This document shows, in pieces, positions 1,443 to 10,766 of a DNA stretch of 11,766 bases (positions within the stretch are counted from its first letter, which is position 1; each line of letters starts with the position of its first letter). Below the pieces are notes generated by a model. It saw only the letters and a list, made by a program, of their open reading frames with translations, was not told where the DNA came from and made no database searches. Position numbers and translations under genes: made by a program. The DNA comes from Candidatus Iainarchaeum sp. (GTDB taxonomy: Archaea; Iainarchaeota; Iainarchaeia; Iainarchaeales; Iainarchaeaceae), in contig JBDRLP010000028.1 of NCBI GenBank assembly GCA_043812975.1, positions 1 to 11,766 of the forward strand, read 5' to 3'.

Positions 1443-4400
1443 ATGGAAAACACAGACTATTTGAAAGAAATAAAAGACACAATAAATGCTATAGTTCCAA
1501 AAGAAGGAGAAATAACTTCAATTGACCTTGAAGGCCCGGAAGTAGCTATTTACACAAAAAAACCAAAAGTGTTTCACGAAAACGAAGATTACGTGAAAAA
1601 CATTGCGTTCCAGTTAAAGAAAAAGGTAAACATCAGAGCAGACAAATCTTTACTGGTTGATCAGAAAGAAGCACAAGAAACAATAATGAAAATTGTTCCT
1701 GAAGATGCTCAAATAACTGAAATTCAGTTCAGTGAACCTTTTAGCGAAGTTGTAATTGAATGTTTAAAACCAGGTTTGGTTATTGGGAAAGGCGGCCAGA
1801 CAAGTAAACAAATTATTCTTGAAACAGGATGGACGCCTAATATTCTTAGAGCTCCAACTCAGCCAAGCGATGTTCTAAAAGGAGTAAGACACCATCTGAA
1901 CAAATATGCTGCAGAAAGAAAAAAGATTTTACAGCAAACTGCCAACAAAATTTATTCTGAAAAATCAAGCCCAAGCTGGATCAGATTAACTCCATTAGGA
2001 GGTTTCAGACAGGTCGGAAGAAGTTGTATACTTTTAGAAACAAGAAAAACCAAAGTACTGTTAGATTGCGGAATCAATATAGCAGCACAGAGCAATGAAG
2101 ACGCTTTTCCTTATTTAGATGCAATCAGATTCCCAATTAACGAACTTGACGCTGTAATTTTAAGCCATGCGCACATGGATCATTGCTTGCCGCCGGAGAG
2201 TTTGGTTCTTACCAAAACGGGGTATAAAAAGATTGACGGAATTAAAGTAGGGGAAAAGGTAATTTCTATGGACTGGGAAAAAGGGAAACTTGTAAAAACA
2301 AAATGCACGCAAAAAACACACACTTCTGGGCATGAAAAAATCCTGAAAATAAAAACCCCTTACTCAAATATCGAATCATCCCCAAATCATCGGTTCTTTA
2401 CAGTAAAAAATCTGCAAATAAAGGAATTAGAGGCCTTAGAACTGAAAAAAGGAATGCTTGTTCCGTCAAACATTTTAAACAAAAAAACTGGGGGAAACGA
2501 CTTTTTCCTTGATACTGATGTGCCTTACGACAAAAGAAAAAAAGCCATTATAACTCTCCCAAAAAAACTGATTCCTGAATTAGCTGAATTCATTGGATAT
2601 TATCTTGGAGATGGCCACAGGTCTTCAAAAGTTTCCCTGAGGTTGACTGATTCGTGCATACAAATATTGGAGCATCACAAATATATAATTGAAAAACTTT
2701 TCAATTATAGCGGCATAATAAGACGCCATTCAGACAAGAGTAAAAATGCGTTTATCCTCGAAATAAACAACATAAAAATAATCAGATTCCTGGAAAAAAA
2801 CTTTCCTGAAATAGGATTCAAAACAAGAAGCATTGTTTGTCCGGAAAAAATAATGCAAGCAAAACAAAACATTCAGAGTGCTTTTCTTAGGGGATTTTTC
2901 GATGCAGAAGGCACAGTAGTAAAGTCAGTTAAGGCAAGTACTTCCAGTAAAAAAATGCAGAAAGACATACAGCATCTGCTTTCAGTCCATGGCATTCCAG
3001 TAAACATAAAGGAAGATGATACTGTCTCCATAGACACAAATTTTGGCATGAAAAAATTTTGTGAAAAAATAGGTTTCTCAATCAATTATAAAAGAGAAAA
3101 ATTAGAGAAAAAAATTTCAAAAACCAAAAACACATCCTTTGAAAAACAGGATTTAGTGCCGGTAACATCTCAGGATTTCAGAAAAATCCTTAAAGACGCA
3201 GGAATGTTGGGAAGAATCCACAAAAGCCCAAAACTGTCAGAAATATTGCCAATGGGGCTTTTGGATTTTTTTAGAAGAAAAAATGGTTACATAACAAGAA
3301 AAACAGCCAAAAAACTGCTAGAGTTGCTTCAAACAAGAATTGTTGAAATTGAAGCAATGCATGAAGAAAAAATGATTAACACCAGAAGACTTCTTAGTGT
3401 TGCCAGGACTGAAGTTATCAACTCTACTGGGCTTAAAATGCATCAGATTCAGAACTTGGAGGAAAAAAACAAGTTCACCAGTGAAATAATGATTGAATAC
3501 AGGCGGTTTTTGAAGGCAAAAAAGAGCACATTAATTGCAATCACCTCTGAAAATATAAAAAAACTACAATCACTTGTTTCAATGGAGACCACTTGGGAAA
3601 AGATTACAAAAATAATTGAAAAGCAAAATCCTTACCCTTACCTTGTCGATATAGAAACAGAAATGGGAAATTTTGTTGCAGGGAACATAATTGTACATAA
3701 CTCAGGATTTATACCATACTTATTCAAGTTAGGTTACAGAGGCCCTGTTTATTGTACAGCACCAACAAGAGATTTGACCGCGATTTTACATTTTGACTAC
3801 ATCGATATTAATGCTAAAGAAAACAAAGACGGACCTTATCAGGAAAGAGATGTTAAAGAAATGCTGAAATACTGTATTACAAGAGAATACAGAGAAGTTA
3901 CTGATATTGCTCCGGACATGAGATTAACATTCCATAATGCTTCACACATACTTGGAAGTGCTTCTGTTCACCTGCATATTGGCGAAGGAGCTCATAACCT
4001 TGTTTACAGTTCAGACATAAAATACGGTTTTACAAGGCTTTTCAATAACGTGGATAGTAACTATCCAAGGATTGAAACCTTAATAGTTGAAAGTACTTAT
4101 GGCGCAAGGGATGATATTCAGACTCAAAGAGAAGAGTCTGAAGCTCAATTTTTGAAAATAATTCAGGAAACAATAAGTCAAGGCGGCTCAATATTGATTC
4201 CAAGCTTTGCTGTTGGAAGAGCTCAGGAAGTACAACTTATTATTGAAAACTTTTATAGACGTGGTTTAATTGACCAGGATGTAAAAGTTTACATTGACGG
4301 AATGATTAAAGAAAGTTCAGCAATTCACACGGCTTATCCTGAGTACCTGAGAAATGCAGTACAAAAAAGAGTATTACAGAATGACAGTCCGTTTACTTCA

Positions 4401-4868
4401 GATATTTTCGAAGTTGCTCAACCGGATCAAAGAGATGAGATTGTGAAAAATGGAAAATCAATCATCATTGCTTCAAGTGGAATGCTTACAGGCGGAGCAA
4501 GTGTACAATATTTCTACAAAATGGCAGAAGACCCAATCAATACAATGATATTTGTTGGTTATCAGGGAGAAGGATCATTAGGAAGAAAAGTCCAATCAGG
4601 CTTGACAAGCATTCCGGTAACTATTGAAAATGGAAGAACAAAAAGACTGAATATTAATATGAGGCTTGAGAACCTGGATGGTTTTTCAGGACACTCAGAC
4701 AGAAAACAATTACAGGCTTATGTGAGAAATTTGAAGCCAAAGCCAAAAAGAATCCTAACTGATCACGGAGAAGCCTCAAAAACAATAGAACTTGCTAAAT
4801 ATTTCTCAAGCAAGTTTGGAATAAGTTCACAGAGCATTAGAAACTTAGACAGCGTAAGATTACGCTAA
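1443..4868 (+). CDS. fttA: Beta-CASP ribonuclease aCPSF1 / transcription termination factor FttA, intein-containing precursor (635 aa after splicing)
   Basis: N-terminal KH domains (GLVIGKGG); MBL motifs LGGFRQVGRS, LLDCG, SHAHMDH, HILGS; beta-CASP motifs AVGRAQE, SGML.GG, FSGHSD, HGE. 1141-506 = 635 aa, the usual size for the family. Confidence 0.96.
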   Translation: MENTDYLKEIKDTINAIVPKEGEITSIDLEGPEVAIYTKKPKVFHENEDYVKNIAFQLKKKVNIRADKSLLVDQKEAQETIMKIVPEDAQITEIQFSEPFSEVVIECLKPGLVIGKGGQTSKQIILETGWTPNILRAPTQPSDVLKGVRHHLNKYAAERKKILQQTANKIYSEKSSPSWIRLTPLGGFRQVGRSCILLETRKTKVLLDCGINIAAQSNEDAFPYLDAIRFPINELDAVILSHAHMDHCLPPESLVLTKTGYKKIDGIKVGEKVISMDWEKGKLVKTKCTQKTHTSGHEKILKIKTPYSNIESSPNHRFFTVKNLQIKELEALELKKGMLVPSNILNKKTGGNDFFLDTDVPYDKRKKAIITLPKKLIPELAEFIGYYLGDGHRSSKVSLRLTDSCIQILEHHKYIIEKLFNYSGIIRRHSDKSKNAFILEINNIKIIRFLEKNFPEIGFKTRSIVCPEKIMQAKQNIQSAFLRGFFDAEGTVVKSVKASTSSKKMQKDIQHLLSVHGIPVNIKEDDTVSIDTNFGMKKFCEKIGFSINYKREKLEKKISKTKNTSFEKQDLVPVTSQDFRKILKDAGMLGRIHKSPKLSEILPMGLLDFFRRKNGYITRKTAKKLLELLQTRIVEIEAMHEEKMINTRRLLSVARTEVINSTGLKMHQIQNLEEKNKFTSEIMIEYRRFLKAKKSTLIAITSENIKKLQSLVSMETTWEKITKIIEKQNPYPYLVDIETEMGNFVAGNIIVHNSGFIPYLFKLGYRGPVYCTAPTRDLTAILHFDYIDINAKENKDGPYQERDVKEMLKYCITREYREVTDIAPDMRLTFHNASHILGSASVHLHIGEGAHNLVYSSDIKYGFTRLFNNVDSNYPRIETLIVESTYGARDDIQTQREESEAQFLKIIQETISQGGSILIPSFAVGRAQEVQLIIENFYRRGLIDQDVKVYIDGMIKESSAIHTAYPEYLRNAVQKRVLQNDSPFTSDIFEVAQPDQRDEIVKNGKSIIIASSGMLTGGASVQYFYKMAEDPINTMIFVGYQGEGSLGRKVQSGLTSIPVTIENGRTKRLNINMRLENLDGFSGHSDRKQLQAYVRNLKPKPKRILTDHGEASKTIELAKYFSSKFGISSQSIRNLDSVRLR
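2184..3701 (+). mobile_element. Intein (506 aa) with a LAGLIDADG homing endonuclease inserted in aCPSF1
   Basis: Block A CLPPESLV, block B SPNH (2379-2390), LAGLIDADG motifs FIGYYLGDG (2589-2615) and FLRGFFDAEG (2883-2912), block F LVDIET..GNFVAG, block G IIVHN followed by Ser+1. Removal restores HAHMDH-SG. Confidence 0.96.
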
Positions 4869-4897: not shown

Positions 4898-5467
4898 TTA
4901 TTTACGTTTTTTCTTTTTTTCCTTTTCTAATCTGGCCCTTGCAGCAGCAGCTTTTTGTTTTCCTATTAGTTTAGTGGCTGCTCTCAGATTTATTGCCGCC
5001 CTGCCAAGGGCGTCAAAAATAGAACCCTTATTACGGTCAATCATAACACCCAAATCAGCCACTCTACTCATATTTACTGCCTGTAATTTAACCAGCTTAC
5101 TGGCTTCAGCGTCGCTCAAGCGATCTCCAAACCGCCTATTAATACTTGATGCAAGCCATTTAATTTCATGGCGAAGTTCAAGCTGTTCCCTGAGCAAGGC
5201 ATTAACATTTTCCAAAAGACTCATTTGGTAATAATTCTCAAGATATTCTCTTGGCGAACCTTTAGTTCCTAAAGATTCAATCTTATTCCACTTTTCATTT
5301 ATTTTATCCTCATCCCTGTTTAATCTGCTTTGAAGTACATCTCTCTTAGCAATAAGAGCTTTTTCCAATTCGGGAAACTGTTTATAGCCGTATTTTTTAT
5401 GAAAATTCAAATCAAGTTGTCTTAATAACTCTTTCAAACCCAGACGCTTACTGATTGGACTACTCAT
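4898..5467 (-). CDS. Basic, helical/coiled-coil hypothetical protein (~189 aa) with a poly-Lys tail
   Basis: Long ORF. ATG at 5467 is preferred over TTG at 5476, with an AT-rich TATA-like element (5494-5504) ~30 nt upstream. Ends EKEKKKKRK. No family recognised. Confidence 0.7.
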   Translation of the reverse strand: MSSPISKRLGLKELLRQLDLNFHKKYGYKQFPELEKALIAKRDVLQSRLNRDEDKINEKWNKIESLGTKGSPREYLENYYQMSLLENVNALLREQLELRHEIKWLASSINRRFGDRLSDAEASKLVKLQAVNMSRVADLGVMIDRNKGSIFDALGRAAINLRAATKLIGKQKAAAARARLEKEKKKKRK

Positions 5468-5765
5468 AGAAACCAAAAGAAATAAGCATGAACTTTAATA
5501 TTAACCAATACACAAATAATACTAATAAAATTTTAGAATAACTAAAAAATAATTAGAAACGGCATAATTGACGTTAAAAGAGAAATTCTGTACAACCCTG
5601 CACCTTATACATAACTCTAATTTTACTCCTATTTTATACATAAAAAAAAATTTGCAAAAAAACCTAATATACATAAGAACGGAGGCTAAATAGGGCTTCT
5701 TTTTTACTTTAAATTCATTAATTACAGTTATTTTGGAAATAAAGGCAGGAGAGAGCTTCTTTTTT

Positions 5766-5780
5766 CGAAAAGTATATATA
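5766..5780 (+). promoter_or_regulatory. Archaeal promoter (BRE cgaaaag + TATA tatatata)
   Basis: Purine-rich BRE directly before tatatata (5773-5780). The expected start near 5803 coincides with the first base of a long hairpin. Confidence 0.7.
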
Positions 5781-5802
5781 TTAGTTCGATCTTACTAAAT
5801 AC

Positions 5803-6006
5803 GTTCTAAACAGGATGATGATTATGGCGGTTTTATTTGGGAGTAGGCTCACAATCAATAATAGCTCTAGGACTGCTAAGCTCGTTAAATGTTTAGAACA
5901 GGGCGGTGAGAGGTTAAAGGACGAAGCAATTGGATTGAGAAAGCCCTGTCTCAAATCCTAGTAACATGTTTTGTTCACCCCTTCCCTAAAACTCCTCTCA
6001 CCCCCT
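5803..6006 (+). ncRNA. Candidate structured non-coding RNA (~205 nt, two long irregular hairpins), family unrecognised
   Basis: Nested stems 5803-5812/5890-5899, 5816-5821/5882-5887, 5825-5835/5868-5878 and 5905-5913/5994-6002, 5919-5928/5967-5976, 5932-5940/5949-5958. Nine G-U pairs favour the + strand. Promoter upstream and pyrimidine tract downstream. Confidence 0.65.
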
Positions 6007-6034
6007 TATATCACTTTCTTAGCACTAATTTTGA

Positions 6035-6526
6035 ATGAAAATAGGAATTACTGGAAGTCCAGGAGTCGGAAAAACATCAGTTTCAAAACTACTTGGACAA
6101 GCATTTAAAGCAAAAGTCTTGAACGAGAAAGAATTCGCTCTTAAAGAAGGAATCGGGGAATTTGATACTACTGAAAATGAATTAGTCGTGCCTTTGAATA
6201 AACTCAAGACAAAATTAAACAAATTTTTGAAAAAAGAAAAAAATATTGTAATCGAGGGCCACATGTTATGTGAAATCAAGGCTGATTTTGATTATTTAGT
6301 GTTAATTAAGTGTGATCCTGAGATTTTGGAGATGCGATTAGAGGAAAGAGGTTACAAAGCTGAAAAAATCCAAGATAATGTGTTTTGTGAAGGCATTGAT
6401 TACTGTAAGAAGCATAGCCTTAGAAATTACTCTAAAAAGAAGGTAATTGTGGTTGAAAACAGGAAAAGTATAAAAGAAACAACAAACGCAATAATACTGA
6501 AAATTGAAAAAAGGGAAACTGAATGA
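6035..6526 (+). CDS. AK6/Fap7/hCINAP-family adenylate kinase / ATPase
   Basis: P-loop ITGSPGVGKT, family signature IVIEGH (hhhExH), LID-like RLEERGY..EKI.DN; 163 aa. A TATA-like ttatat at 6006-6011 suggests a leaderless transcript. Confidence 0.9.
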   Translation: MKIGITGSPGVGKTSVSKLLGQAFKAKVLNEKEFALKEGIGEFDTTENELVVPLNKLKTKLNKFLKKEKNIVIEGHMLCEIKADFDYLVLIKCDPEILEMRLEERGYKAEKIQDNVFCEGIDYCKKHSLRNYSKKKVIVVENRKSIKETTNAIILKIEKRETE

Positions 6527-7749
6527 AAGCCGGATTTTTACTCATATCATTGATTTTTCTGAGCTACATAACTATTGCTTCTCCTTTGACTGAATTCAGT
6601 TTTAAAGAACAAGGATACCAAGACTTCTACATAAATGGTTTTGAGAAGTATGATTGTAAAAAGTACGATTTTGTTTTAAACACTGATTTTAATTCTTCTG
6701 TTTTCCCTATTTTTTCATTAAATGCTAAATTTTCTCCACAAATAGAAAGTGATGCATCAATAATTGTATTTTTTAATGATAACAATAGCATTGCAGAGTT
6801 AAAATCCGCGAATTTTGAAAATAATGTCGCCAGAATCTGGATCCCGAGGGAAAAAGTATCTGAAAACAACAATATCAGGGTTTGTGGAGAAACTTCTTTT
6901 AGCGTAAATAAAATTTTGATTTCTGCTGACTCTGAATTTGGGCTTTATTATGCGCCTTTTTTCCCCGAAGAAGATGGATTTAAGCTTGAACTTGAAACTT
7001 ATCAGCCAATAGTGGGAATTCCTTTCAGAATTGATGCTGTTGCAAAAAATTATGGGAGTGAGGATACAGAAGTATCATTGAGTTACAGGCGAGGAGAACT
7101 GGAAGAATCTTTGGAAGAAATCACTATTCTTGGAGGGGAAACTTCAAAAAAAGGAATAGCGCCAAAATGCTTGGAAAGAAATGATAATGCTGATTGTATT
7201 ACTCCGGGAGAATACAGGATTTCTTATTCTGCTGTTGCAAATAAAGCTGTTCCTATGACTTTGCTTCCAGCCCAACTTGGTTTTTTGAACGCATTTGGGG
7301 AAACTCGAAATATTCAATCTGACAGACCAAGTATTGAGGCTTTTGAACCAAAACACAATATTTCTGCCCAGATTTTTGTTGGAAAAGATAATCCAAAAGT
7401 CGGAGAAACAATTCCACTTAAAGTAAAAATCAAAAATATTGGAAAAACAAGGATAAATAATATTTCTGTTGATTTAAGGACTGGTCTTGAAACCATTGGG
7501 GAAGTAACCAAAACAATTGCTTTCCTTGATGCTGACCAGTCAACAGAACTTAGTTTTACTGCAAAAGGAATAAGCAAGGGAGAATACTCACTCGGATGCA
7601 TGGTTGCTTATAACAATAAATCCCTTGAATGCGGCCAGACGAGTGTTTTATTAGATAGTGAAGAATTAAGTGGCGAAATTCTAATTGGAGTAGGTTTTGT
7701 TTTAATCGCACTGGCTGTGTTTGGATATTTTTATTTCAAAAAGCATTAA
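6523..7749 (+). CDS. Secreted, C-terminally membrane-anchored protein with Ig-like (CARDB/BatD-like) domains
   Basis: Signal peptide MKAGFLLISLIFLSYITIA; Ig-like pattern VGETIPLKVKIKNIG; C-terminal TM ILIGVGFVLIALAVFGYFYF plus KKH; ATGA overlap with the kinase stop. Confidence 0.8.
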   Translation: MKAGFLLISLIFLSYITIASPLTEFSFKEQGYQDFYINGFEKYDCKKYDFVLNTDFNSSVFPIFSLNAKFSPQIESDASIIVFFNDNNSIAELKSANFENNVARIWIPREKVSENNNIRVCGETSFSVNKILISADSEFGLYYAPFFPEEDGFKLELETYQPIVGIPFRIDAVAKNYGSEDTEVSLSYRRGELEESLEEITILGGETSKKGIAPKCLERNDNADCITPGEYRISYSAVANKAVPMTLLPAQLGFLNAFGETRNIQSDRPSIEAFEPKHNISAQIFVGKDNPKVGETIPLKVKIKNIGKTRINNISVDLRTGLETIGEVTKTIAFLDADQSTELSFTAKGISKGEYSLGCMVAYNNKSLECGQTSVLLDSEELSGEILIGVGFVLIALAVFGYFYFKKH

Positions 7750-10700
7750 TCACTTGAAACTTTTCTTATTTTCACAACCGGTTTTGGTTTCTTTTCCTCT
7801 TCTGATTTTTTGTAAACGTAAAAGGCAACTCCGAGAAGAACTAAAATTAAAGGATATACTGCTAAAGGAATTTCAAATGGGGGAGAAATTGTTACTTGGT
7901 CTGTTAAATTAGATGCTTTATAAGAATTGTAAATTGATTCTAAATACGATTTTTCTTCCAAAGCCTGTTTTGATTTTAAAAGCAGAGAATCTGCTTCAGG
8001 ATTTGGTTCTGAAGAATTTCTTTTTGAAACAGCTACATTGTAAGAGGAAAACGAATTTTGTTTTAATTTTTCAATAGCAGAGGTTACTTCTTTATCAATA
8101 GTTTCTAGCTTTGCTAGTTCTTCCAACCCTGCGGGTTCAGTTTTATTGTTTAACTGATTTTTCAGTTCTTTAATTCTTTCAAGAGTTATTGGAGAAAAAA
8201 CATAAATTTCTTTGAGTTGTTCCGTGGTCAAACTGGAAAAATTTGATTCTAATAATGCTATTTTTTCGTCTAAAGAAAGCTTTAGAATCCCTATTTTTGT
8301 ATTTTCTTCATCAGAGGATTTATTTTCCTCTGCTTTAAATTCAGGAACAGAATTAACTAAAAACTCTAAATTCTGAAGTTCTTCTGCTGCTTTTTCAAGT
8401 TTATTCTGGTCCGCATAAAACTGTATTTTTTCACCTGAAAGTTTTACATTTAAATCGTCCTCTAAAACAGAACTTGCTTTTTCCAAAAGCAGTTCTTTTT
8501 CAAAAATTATTCTTTGTTTTTCCGCAAAATCCAAAAAATCGTTTTCTATAGGAGGATTAATTTCTGGTTTTTTTGCATTGAAATTTAAATCTAAAATTAT
8601 TGAATTTAATCCTGTTAAAAGTTTTGAGAATTTTAAAGTTGTTTTGTTTTCGTTTGATAAATAAGAAATGTTTCCTGTGGAAAAAATTTCTTTTGCATTT
8701 GCTGAATCAAGATCTATTACAGTGCTGAAAGGAACATTAATTTCTCCTGAAGGATTTTCAATAAAAATTCTTGCAAAGCTCCCGTTAGTTTCTCCGATTG
8801 AATCAAGAAGTTCTACTTGAAGATAATTTTCTGTTATTTCTGGAGCCAGCTGTTGCAGGATTTTATCAGCACCGGAAGAAAATGCAGTGAGATCATCCGC
8901 TATTTTTCCTGCATTATGTGTTTCTGAAAGGATTAAACCGAAATCTTCAAAATTTGGTTCAAATGAGGAAAAATCATCAATAAAGTCAATTACTCTTTTG
9001 GCTGTTTTTGTGCCGGGAAATTCAACCAAAAGGTTTTCCATAAGAACTGCTTTTTCAGAAACCTCTTTATAGAATTGATTTGCCAAAAGGACATCTCTGC
9101 CGGAAAGGGCTTTTACTTCCAGTTTTTGGAGTAAATCGAGGCAGGAATTCAGCACCAAATCTGGATTTTCATAGGGTTTTTCGATTCTTTTCAGGGAATC
9201 CAATTGTAATCCCAGAGAACCATCATCAAAATTCATTAATGCTTCAACTTTCAAAATACATGAATCGATTTGAATTGAAACTTCTTCTTCAGGATTTGAG
9301 GAATCTAGATAAGCTAATAAGTTCGAGTAAGTTTTAAGGGCTTCAGAACATGAATCGATAGTTTGGGTTTCGTTAAAGAATTTTATCTGTGTTTTCAGCC
9401 TTGTTTTTGCAGAAATTATAACCGGATTTGATGAATCGAATTCTGGCTTGCTTATTTCTTCTGAAATAGTGGAAAGTTTTTGTTCGCATGTTTGATTAGC
9501 AGAAATTAATAATTCATCAAAATAATTTAATTCCTCAAGAATATTTTTTGATTCTTTTGAAAGTTCTTTGAGAATTCTTGTTTTTTGCCCAAGAGAAATT
9601 TTTTCCAAAAACTCCGCTTCATCCAGAGAACGCACAGATGACTTTATTTTTTCTATTTTTTTATTAAAATTTGAGGAAAAGTTTTCAAAATCACTTAAGG
9701 AAAAACTGGTTGTTGACAGCCCTAAAGTAAGTGCTGAATCCTGGGAAAAAAGTATTTCAGGAAAAAAGTAATCACCATAATTTTGAGAAATTAAAAGCAC
9801 TTTTTCTGATGCAAGATTCAGGTTTTCATTAATCTTTATTCTTTCCAGAGAATTCTTTTCCTGAAGCGAAATCCTGTGTTCAGAATTATCAGCAAACATG
9901 CCAAAAAAAGAACTTGCAGCTGAATTCTCTGCACCTATAAGGTTATTGAGTGCTGAAAAAAGTTCAAATGACGGCAGGTTTTTCAGGGATTCTACTGACC
10001 CGCTTAGTGCAAAAAAATTGCTTAAAAAATCTGATAAACCAGTAAAAATCGGGGCAATAAAAGTAATTGGAAAATCCTGTTTTTTTGCTTCACTCAAAAT
10101 TACCTTGTCATTTTCAGCAAGGATTCCGAACAATGTTGTTTCACTTACATTGTTTTGCAATTCCAAAGTTTCTGCTAAAACATTAAACTTTTCAGCTTCA
10201 AACAAAAACCTGGAAGCGTAAGTATTATTGTGAATGTTTTTTTCAGAAAAATCAATTACATTTTGATTCAGGATTACATAATCATCAAACAGGAATTCCT
10301 CTCTCACAATATTAATGTCTTCTAATTCAAGATTATTAATTTCAAAGCTAATTGCCTTGGCTGCTTCTTTATTGAAAGAATCGATTTCCTCAGCAACAAC
10401 CACAATATTAGAATTTAATTCATTAACCTGCTGCGGAACTAATGAAAGTTTCTTAGCTGAATAACATTGGTTGTGGATTATTTTCAGGTTTGCTTTGGCC
10501 TTGTTAAGGAACAGCCATGATCTCGCCAAATGGTTTTTTGCATTGAAAATACTCTCCTGAACCTTAGAACTGAAGGTACTTTCATTGAAATTGAATTTTG
10601 ATTCAACTTCCTCAAAACATTTTTCCTGAGTAGAACAATCAGGAACTGAAGTAAAAGAATAAGAGGTTAGTTCTAAGCAGGCTAAACGATCCTCAATAGT

Positions 10701-10766
10701 AGCATTATCTAAACACCCGGAAAAGAGTAAAATAAAGCTAATTAATAGAATTACTTGGATTTGCAT
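7746..10766 (-). CDS. Large (1006 aa) predicted surface lipoprotein, acidic and mostly helical, with a C-terminal TM anchor
   Basis: Lipobox-like LLFSG|C (Cys18); long helical/coiled-coil segments with spaced Cys; C-terminal LAVYPLILVLLGVAFYVY followed by a basic tail. The stop overlaps that of the convergent gene (ttaa 7746-7749). Confidence 0.85.
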   Translation of the reverse strand: MQIQVILLISFILLFSGCLDNATIEDRLACLELTSYSFTSVPDCSTQEKCFEEVESKFNFNESTFSSKVQESIFNAKNHLARSWLFLNKAKANLKIIHNQCYSAKKLSLVPQQVNELNSNIVVVAEEIDSFNKEAAKAISFEINNLELEDINIVREEFLFDDYVILNQNVIDFSEKNIHNNTYASRFLFEAEKFNVLAETLELQNNVSETTLFGILAENDKVILSEAKKQDFPITFIAPIFTGLSDFLSNFFALSGSVESLKNLPSFELFSALNNLIGAENSAASSFFGMFADNSEHRISLQEKNSLERIKINENLNLASEKVLLISQNYGDYFFPEILFSQDSALTLGLSTTSFSLSDFENFSSNFNKKIEKIKSSVRSLDEAEFLEKISLGQKTRILKELSKESKNILEELNYFDELLISANQTCEQKLSTISEEISKPEFDSSNPVIISAKTRLKTQIKFFNETQTIDSCSEALKTYSNLLAYLDSSNPEEEVSIQIDSCILKVEALMNFDDGSLGLQLDSLKRIEKPYENPDLVLNSCLDLLQKLEVKALSGRDVLLANQFYKEVSEKAVLMENLLVEFPGTKTAKRVIDFIDDFSSFEPNFEDFGLILSETHNAGKIADDLTAFSSGADKILQQLAPEITENYLQVELLDSIGETNGSFARIFIENPSGEINVPFSTVIDLDSANAKEIFSTGNISYLSNENKTTLKFSKLLTGLNSIILDLNFNAKKPEINPPIENDFLDFAEKQRIIFEKELLLEKASSVLEDDLNVKLSGEKIQFYADQNKLEKAAEELQNLEFLVNSVPEFKAEENKSSDEENTKIGILKLSLDEKIALLESNFSSLTTEQLKEIYVFSPITLERIKELKNQLNNKTEPAGLEELAKLETIDKEVTSAIEKLKQNSFSSYNVAVSKRNSSEPNPEADSLLLKSKQALEEKSYLESIYNSYKASNLTDQVTISPPFEIPLAVYPLILVLLGVAFYVYKKSEEEKKPKPVVKIRKVSSD

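Follow-up and report, generated by a model that had tools for sequence, protein, structure and literature searches.

Dual-function and small-protein RNAs reportedly include RNAIII with its delta-haemolysin, SgrS/SgrT, SR1/SR1P and AzuCR, together with the spRNAs of Methanosarcina mazei. RNAIII pairs with Shine-Dalgarno sequences through a C-rich exposed loop, and the mRNAs of the hok family show long-range pairing of both their ends that is maintained by compensatory changes. Here we describe an element of about 205-215 nt that bears comparison with both groups. It lies on the forward strand of an 11,766-nucleotide stretch of DNA (contig C28; hereafter the window) from an archaeal genome of 1.24 Mb with 35% G+C, at a place where a new two-hairpin non-coding RNA (ncRNA) gene had been proposed (the original prediction). 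Its protein product invites comparison with shortened histones: according to the available portions of two papers, alpha3-truncated histones (face-to-face, bacterial dimer and related forms; Schwab et al. 2024, PMC11390915) keep alpha1 and 3-4 residues of alpha3, and the short acidic 'cluster 4' histones, 55 aa long, retain alpha1 and an alpha3 stub (PMC13260811). We put at roughly 70% the probability that positions 5803 to ~6010-6020 are a structured, Shine-Dalgarno-led, monocistronic mRNA for a 45-residue basic mini-protein that is truncated and histone-like. Rather than a new ncRNA gene, the unit is the mRNA of a small protein, and its structure is biologically meaningful; we file it both with the structured or dual-function small-protein RNAs and with the histone-fold derivatives.

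The open reading frame (ORF) had been overlooked because it falls below the usual 50-aa cut-off of ORF lists. In-frame ATGs at 5815 and 5818 are alternatives to the start at 5824, which was picked from the protein alignment, and the frame stays open for 45-48 codons across both hairpins. Of 40 relatives searched at the DNA level, 22 belong to the family of the source genome (f1) and 18 to other families; the element was matched in 14/22 and 0/18, respectively. The ORF frame is open in all 14 DNA homologues, and the other two frames carry 2-7 stops in 13 of them. Among 20 f1 sequences, pairwise differences within an ungapped core of 22 codons number 1295/943/2250 at codon positions 1, 2 and 3, and the ratio of non-synonymous to synonymous differences (pN/pS) in this core is 0.35 in the ORF frame versus 0.88 and 1.35 in the shifted frames. 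A constraint on the RNA has no three-base period, and the amino acid sequence of the ORF is therefore under purifying selection. By inspection of the alignment, length changes at the N-terminus come as whole codons and Leu codons exchange among TTA, CTG, CTC and CTA. The purine motif ahead of the start lies 5-12 nt before AUG 5824, and homologues have GGUGA, GGGG(A), GUGA, GGUGG or AGGA at the same place. These Shine-Dalgarno-like motifs fit the tail of the 16S rRNA, whose 3' end reads GGAUCACCUCCUUU, and GGTGA is found 37 times at -16..-4 of 684 long ORFs of the genome, compared with once in a control stretch. An open frame, periodicity, a pN/pS below 1 in one frame and a ribosome-binding site, by which a small coding ORF is recognized, are all present. 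Gene predictors had already called the ORF in 31 database clusters (41-73 aa, without a Pfam domain), the three named ones all as 'hypothetical protein'. A conserved ORF under purifying selection at the amino acid level, the motif ahead of it and these gene-caller predictions speak against the ncRNA status that had been proposed. One of the 14 DNA matches, in G001 (24 bases, E 0.003), lies inside an unrelated ORF-like stretch; it was regarded as chance and kept out of all alignments.

The family was followed further with a protein profile built from 28 proteins and searched in six frames against 196 species genomes of the order. The profile matches 34 of the 196, and 33 of these 34 matches are without an internal stop. 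By family, matches were obtained in 19/22 genomes of f1 besides the source genome, 4/6 of f17, 2/2 of f6 and 1/1 of f29; outside f1 they are sporadic among the families of the order, f3, f11, f24 and f25 being examples of families with none, and the three f1 genomes without a match are 63-82% complete. None of 19 further genomes of the class, outside the order, was matched. The element is single-copy in its own genome, and an exhaustive hidden Markov model (HMM) search of 1.84 billion representatives returned 23 relatives, all of 41-84 aa, with no long or fused form. One member of the family carries the NCBI label Candidatus Diapherotrites. A tblastn match of 17 residues in a metagenome-assembled genome of Actinomycetes was taken as chance and not used. 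Weak profile matches in G158, G040, G172 and G057 (E > 4e-4) are without loci and do not enter the comparisons, and the RNA tests on 27 homologues described below exclude G081 (histone), G166 and G134.

The minimum free energy (MFE) fold of 5803-6012 has -69.5 kcal/mol and 66 pairs, and it contains all the stems that had been listed from the sequence, each at its place (Table 1). G-U pairs are present as claimed, in a number of 12 in this fold instead of the nine originally counted. Positions 5795-6015 fold at -69.3 kcal/mol on the plus strand (z -3.99), with 0/200 dinucleotide shuffles as good; the minus strand gives a weaker z of -2.80 with 1/200 shuffles as good. By this shuffle test, as had been proposed, the fold exceeds chance. 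The fold sits in a local G+C island, 0.38-0.46 over 5800-5999 versus 0.22-0.28 immediately upstream. The two hairpins are built from the coding sequence together with both untranslated regions (UTRs). In hairpin 1 the closing stem joins the 5' leader to the codons of Lys22-Cys23-Leu24-Glu25 plus base 1 of the Gln26 codon. In hairpin 2 the 3' UTR is the partner of the Gln-Gly-Gly-Glu-Arg codons in the outer stem (5900-5913/5994-6006) and of the Lys-Asp-Glu-Ala codons in the inner one, and the final codons and the stop sit at the apex. Altogether codons 22-26 are engaged by the first ten bases of the RNA, and codons 26-30 and 32-35 by the 3' UTR. The hairpins abut, as G5803:C5899 neighbors A5900:U6006, and the gap between them is 0-3 nt in the eight homologue folds inspected. 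Both ends of the transcript are thus paired to central codons (Lys22 to Arg30), which thereby act as a splint joining the two ends. Predicted unpaired probabilities, as means over f1, are 0.22 for the 5' end, 0.28 for the Shine-Dalgarno region, 0.39 for the AUG, 0.50 for the stop codon and 0.39 for the whole RNA; the invariant CACCC(N) motif is the most exposed element, at 0.81.

The RNA-level structure claimed for the plus strand was borne out by covariation, as its helices covary in relatives. In a structure-blind MAFFT alignment 91.4% of the consensus-structure cells pair, versus 47-67% when the partners are slid by 1-3 columns, and the covariation score is 0.286 versus 0.226 +/- 0.012 in shuffles, of which 0/500 reach 0.286. 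In the same alignment five of the ten pairs of the hairpin 1 closing stem have changed on both sides. Because MAFFT misaligns the variable 3' UTR, co-evolution was also tested directly on cognate duplexes, where each leader or 3' UTR of the 27 homologues was folded against every species' codon segment; chance would give a median rank of 13 and the own partner as best in ~1/27. For hairpin 1 the mean z was -1.6 and the median rank 2 of 26, with the own partner best in 9/27, and for the hairpin 2 outer stem the mean z was -1.59 and the median rank 1 of 26, with the own partner best in 11/27. The test is powerless for the hairpin 2 inner stem, which is invariant in sequence (z -0.64). At single codons, T5907 in the third position of the second Gly codon forms U-A in 5, A-U in 10, G-C in 5, C-G in 3 and G-U in 2 homologues and is unpaired in 2 (n=27), so that all four Watson-Crick pair types are seen there, and the third position of the Cys codon forms U-A in 8 and C-G in 17 of the 27; these tables come from per-sequence optimal duplexes of mutually related sequences and are biased toward pairing. 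Compensatory base changes in the helices exceed the controls, as expected of a structured RNA. Synonymous sites in this gene are not free, they co-evolve with untranslated bases. Since covariation links synonymous codon positions to both the 5' leader and the 3' UTR, the protein and the RNA fold are both selected: the ORF is under selection at the amino acid level and the helices are under selection at the RNA level.

The gene also has the predicted borders of a unit of its own. The promoter, with its B recognition element (BRE) and TATA box, was read directly in the window where it had been claimed, and a match to GAAAAGTATTTATA with at most three mismatches is kept in 27/27 homologues, 108-134 nt ahead of the Gly-Gly codons in most of them. 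The predicted transcription start, judged from spacing and homologues, is a G after a C that lies 23 nt past the TATA box and is the first base of hairpin 1; with the same spacing, homologues keep a pyrimidine-G and then UU(Y)U. Beyond hairpin 2 a T-rich run probably serves as an archaeal terminator, and T-rich runs are seen by inspection 3' of hairpin 2 in homologues too. With its own promoter and a length of ~205-215 nt, the element agrees with the stand-alone unit of ~205 nt that had been proposed.

What the fold may do for the mRNA can be outlined tentatively. It would hide both RNA ends from exonucleases and so give a long-lived mRNA, and it would throttle translation because the ribosome must unwind both helices; we regard this combination of end protection and throttling as plausible, at somewhat less than even odds. 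The UCACCCC loop, on the 3' side of the hairpin 2 internal loop, may mask the Shine-Dalgarno motif of the mRNA itself or bind a factor. T5975-C5980 of this loop are invariant in 14/14 sequences, and the loop resembles the 16S anti-Shine-Dalgarno tail (UCACCUCC; GAUCACCUCC). An alternative pairing of UCACCCC with GAGAGG can be formed. Genome-wide the motif is not enriched (43 copies versus 43.6 expected), so it is not a genome-wide 3' signal, and the canonical histone gene of the same genome (C11:13349-13534) is without it. In the homologues of G011 and G007 a UUCACCC motif is present twice. As a speculation, the mini-protein could pair with the single full-length histone of the cell and thereby cap or weaken histone oligomers.

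The mini-protein is hydrophilic and basic, with 9 Lys/Arg versus 4 Asp/Glu, and by direct reading has no membrane helix. NCBIfam gave no match to the protein of the window, Pfam gave two chance matches only among 13 members (E 0.08 and 0.18), and the best score in the ESM Atlas, 0.77, was below the level for follow-up. Only one protein of a known family is matched by the mini-protein profile, the second histone of G081, which has 66 aa (E 4.6e-5 for one genome). The gene of this histone (L064:1456-1653, minus strand; PF00808 E 1.6e-6) takes the place that the mini-gene has elsewhere, immediately upstream of AK6 and on its strand, and G081 has a canonical histone on another contig as well. When aligned with hhalign to the f1 histones plus the G081 paralogue, residues 17-48 fall on histone alpha2 and L2 (76.9%, E 2.1e-5), and against 17 diverse canonical histones without G081 the same register is obtained (47%, E 2e-4). 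From this we lean toward the view that the mini-protein is a truncated, diverged histone paralogue that keeps L1 and alpha2 and is without alpha1 and alpha3. A CUCACCCC motif is found 3' of the stop codon of the G081 66-aa histone. Partial PF00808 matches to model positions 31-61 occur at G009:C3:40384-40473 (L082, 24.2 bits) and G018:C72:2502-2594 (L083, 21.7 bits); the open frames there code for 90 and 75 aa, lie away from the mini-gene locus and may be other truncated or fused histone-like genes.

Several results weigh against reading the unit as the mRNA of a histone-like mini-protein, and most of them concern the histone link. PF00808 matched 0/13 members by hmmscan at E<=10, six-frame PF00808 searches of 23 and 196 genomes (E<=0.001) had no mini-gene match among the matches listed, and a sequence profile search of the PDB found no histone, its best match being Ies2 at E 0.6. 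The AlphaFold2 (AF2) monomer (mean predicted local distance difference test, pLDDT, 72.5) has a helix at 16-29 that is broken where the chain turns at Gly-Gly, and then a second, short one at 36-39; with these helices only, it does not show the three-helix histone fold alpha1-L1-alpha2-L2-alpha3. Used as a query against the 196 genomes, the G081 histone found only canonical histones, at <=54% identity. A syntenic full-length histone is seen in one genome only, G081 being the one whose context was examined, and the two-hairpin fold was looked for in the G081 histone mRNA and not seen. On the side of the mRNA, the most distant of the 27 homologues (G038, G027, G119 and G018) do not pass the cognate duplex test. 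In G011 and G007 (L015, L017, L052, L053) there is no in-frame ATG at the aligned start, which reads as a non-standard AUA-CUG, and the sole standard start is a GUG at +13 inside a Shine-Dalgarno-like AGGUG. Transcription, the transcript ends and translation are throughout predictions from the sequence.

Among other explanations, the one we take most seriously, unlikely as it is, would let the same RNA be translated and also act as a riboregulator, its loop pairing with the Shine-Dalgarno motifs (GGGGUGA or GGAGGUGA) of other mRNAs or titrating a factor. A covarying fold over the whole transcript is unusual in an ordinary mRNA, the loop combines invariance in 14/14 sequences with an exposure twice that of the RNA as a whole and with likeness to the 16S tail, motifs such as GGTGA and GGGG are in use as Shine-Dalgarno sequences in the genome, and small-protein-encoding RNAs are reported in Methanosarcina and in bacteria. 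However, an anti-Shine-Dalgarno-like loop fits almost any Shine-Dalgarno motif, so complementarity alone proves nothing, and the loop can be explained in cis, by masking of the mRNA's own Shine-Dalgarno motif or by the GAGAGG pairing. A bolder version, which we consider quite improbable, would make the RNA dual-function in full: the codon core would splint the ends in a nick-like junction, an alpha2-only mini-histone would cap or poison the oligomers of the host histone, the loop would act on the Shine-Dalgarno motif of the RNA itself or on those of other mRNAs, and the ends would suit joining into a circular coding RNA. Pairing of both ends is also what recalls a locked, hok-like type I toxin mRNA, kept inert by its end pairing until processing and possibly controlled by an antisense RNA. 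Both ends are indeed sequestered by covarying long-range pairing, the product is below 50 aa and the Shine-Dalgarno region is more paired than average (0.28 versus 0.39 unpaired), but the peptide is hydrophilic and basic without a membrane helix where a hydrophobic one would be expected, and the gene is single-copy, syntenic and vertically conserved beside housekeeping genes, unlike most toxin loci; we think this very unlikely.

A pure ncRNA, with the ORF as a by-product of strong nucleotide conservation, would account for the strong structure, the covariation, the own promoter and an ORF without a known protein family. It is equally hard to uphold in view of the differences by codon position and the pN/pS that is low in the ORF frame only, of Leu codons that vary at their first and third base yet remain Leu, of a frame that is open in 33/34 matches across the order, and of a properly spaced Shine-Dalgarno-like motif. 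Known RNA classes do not fit either. No tRNA had been recognized, and ARAGORN found neither tRNA nor tmRNA; across the whole window no match to an Rfam family attains the gathering score, and the only two weak matches at E<=10 over 5480-6100 both lie outside the element, which accordingly matches no described RNA family. The element matches neither the signal recognition particle (SRP) RNA nor the RNase P RNA model, as had been said from the sequence, and an identity with either is excluded because both are located elsewhere in the genome, with scores above the cut-offs of 119.2 bits for SRP RNA (C58) and 97.1 bits for RNase P RNA (C12). Least credible of all, and hardly worth upholding, are a structured 5' leader of the AK6 (Fap7) operon and an H/ACA-like two-hairpin guide, both raised by the original prediction. 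AK6, an AAA_18 protein (alias AK6/Fap7) with its ATG at 6035, does lie downstream on the same strand within 1.5 kb in 24/27 loci, in 20 of these within 220 nt, and an ACA (5898-5900) does stand at the hairpin junction. However, in all 24 AK6-downstream loci a separate TATA-like box lies 22-28 nt ahead of the AK6 ATG and a Shine-Dalgarno motif is absent, as would suit a leaderless mRNA; the element is therefore not the AK6 leader, and in four loci AK6 is 344-1240 nt away from the mini-gene. The ACA, though conserved, is codon sequence (the end of the Glu and the start of the Gln codon) and base-paired, with A5898 and C5899 in stem 1 and A5900 paired to U6006, and is thus not a single-stranded box; 3' of hairpin 2 an ACA is lacking in the window and in homologues alike, inspection shows no conserved pseudouridylation pocket of the kind that lies 14-16 nt from an ACA, and the interior of hairpin 1 varies by whole codons among homologues. 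Rfam H/ACA models gave no score for the element at E<=10, and the internal loops, when inspected, are not bordered by tandem G-A/A-G motifs, in keeping with the absence of a K-turn already remarked upon. A partial RNase P RNA-like match was also seen at a contig end (C22:7438-7569; 42.7 bits, below the cut-off, model positions 36-191).

Table 1. Features of the mini-gene and its borders in the window.
Feature	Position	Strand	Remark
BRE/TATA promoter	5766..5780	+	cgaaaag-tatatata (cgaaaagtatatata); read directly
Predicted transcription start	5803	+	G after C, from spacing and homologues
Hairpin 1	5803..5899	+	MFE fold
Stem, hairpin 1 closing	5803-5812/5890-5899	+	10 bp, MFE fold
Shine-Dalgarno-like purine motif	5812..5819	+	AGGAUGAU
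Stem	5816-5821/5882-5887	+	6 bp, MFE fold
Mini-protein coding sequence, 45 aa	5824..5961	+	MAVLFGSRL...CLEQGGERLKDEAIGLRKPCLKS; stop TAG 5959-5961; open frame, homologues
Stem	5825-5834/5869-5878	+	10 bp, MFE fold
Hairpin 2	5900..6006	+	MFE fold
Stem	5905-5913/5994-6002	+	9 bp, MFE fold
Stem, hairpin 2 inner	5919-5928/5967-5976	+	10 bp, MFE fold
Stem	5932-5940/5949-5958	+	one bulge, MFE fold
UCACCCC loop	5975..5981	+	UCACCCCUU; exposed, C-rich
AK6 TATA-like box	6005..6012	+	cttatatc; overlaps 3' foot of hairpin 2
T-rich run, likely terminator	6015..6020	+	TTTCTT, after hairpin 2

As the TATA-like box of AK6 overlaps the foot of hairpin 2, the terminator region of the mini-gene and the AK6 promoter share sequence. 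The AK6/Fap7 genes of the order appear leaderless, judging from positions 6005-6037 of the window and the 24 related loci. Directly after AK6, with a start that overlaps the AK6 stop, lies the gene of a ~405-aa protein with a weak CARDB domain (window 6523-7749, plus strand), and the gene order FttA ... mini-gene, AK6, 405-aa protein is found in at least eight loci (among L023-L031). The gene of the termination factor FttA/aCPSF1 (window 1443-4868, plus strand) encodes 1141 aa versus 632-645 aa in relatives; its metallo-beta-lactamase domain is interrupted by an intein (Pfam Intein_splicing, residues 255-753) that carries a homing-endonuclease domain of the LAGLIDADG type. In one relative an ORF for a PemK/MazF-like toxin lies between FttA and the mini-gene (L025:2232-2558, plus strand). 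The ORFs at 4898-5476 (minus strand, 192 aa) and 7746-10766 (minus strand, 1006 aa) have no Pfam family at E<=0.001. Elsewhere in the genome the matches to 16S rRNA are odd: one of 818 bases (C53:6244-7061) spans model positions 1-1478, and two adjoining ones (C12:17-983) cover model positions 497-828 and 829-1467. Possible causes are insertions or deletions in the rRNA operon, or its faulty assembly.

New ncRNAs in AT-rich archaea are classically called from islands of high G+C content that fold well and have a promoter of their own; here such an island marks a small-protein gene. Small genes of this kind fall under ORF-length cut-offs, and a test for three-base periodicity would detect such cases. 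The locus is also an unusually clean case of dual constraint, with synonymous sites that covary with untranslated bases in more than twenty species and over the entire mRNA. To our knowledge very little is known about the trade-offs between structure, stability and translation of mRNAs in archaea, and the mini-gene makes a good test case for them. If the histone link is true, the mini-protein would be the shortest histone-fold derivative that we found described, and a candidate archaeal chromatin regulator conserved across a family of small-genome archaea with one canonical histone.

Compared with archaeal histones of the HMfB type (PF00808, CBFD_NFYB_HMF), the core ...AKLxxCLEQGGERLxDEAIGLxK of the mini-protein aligns with alpha2 and the start of L2, a G-x-R-[LV]-[ST] is seen by inspection at the would-be loop L1, and a full histone fold occupies the same AK6-upstream slot in G081; the mini-proteins differ in having 40-53 aa without alpha1, alpha3 and the RKT...D motif, and in scoring below the Pfam threshold. 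With the forms described in the available portions of PMC11390915 and PMC13260811 the mini-protein shares that it is a shortened histone-fold derivative in a prokaryote beside a canonical histone, whereas it is shorter and basic and is without both alpha1 and alpha3; those portions hold no mention of an alpha2-only form of ~45 aa. In its RNA the gene resembles the hok family, where long-range pairing of the ends likewise makes a small-protein mRNA compact and has been preserved through compensatory changes, although the mini-protein is not hydrophobic and its locus is syntenic and housekeeping-like. The closest dual-function parallels are found in bacteria, in RNAIII (delta-haemolysin) and SR1/SR1P: in common with the dual-function RNAs, the mini-gene has a structured transcript of ~200 nt with its own predicted promoter and terminator, a protein of less than 50 aa and an exposed C-rich loop. 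Targets in trans are in this case hypothesized only, and what sets the mini-gene apart is that its helices are built from the coding sequence itself.

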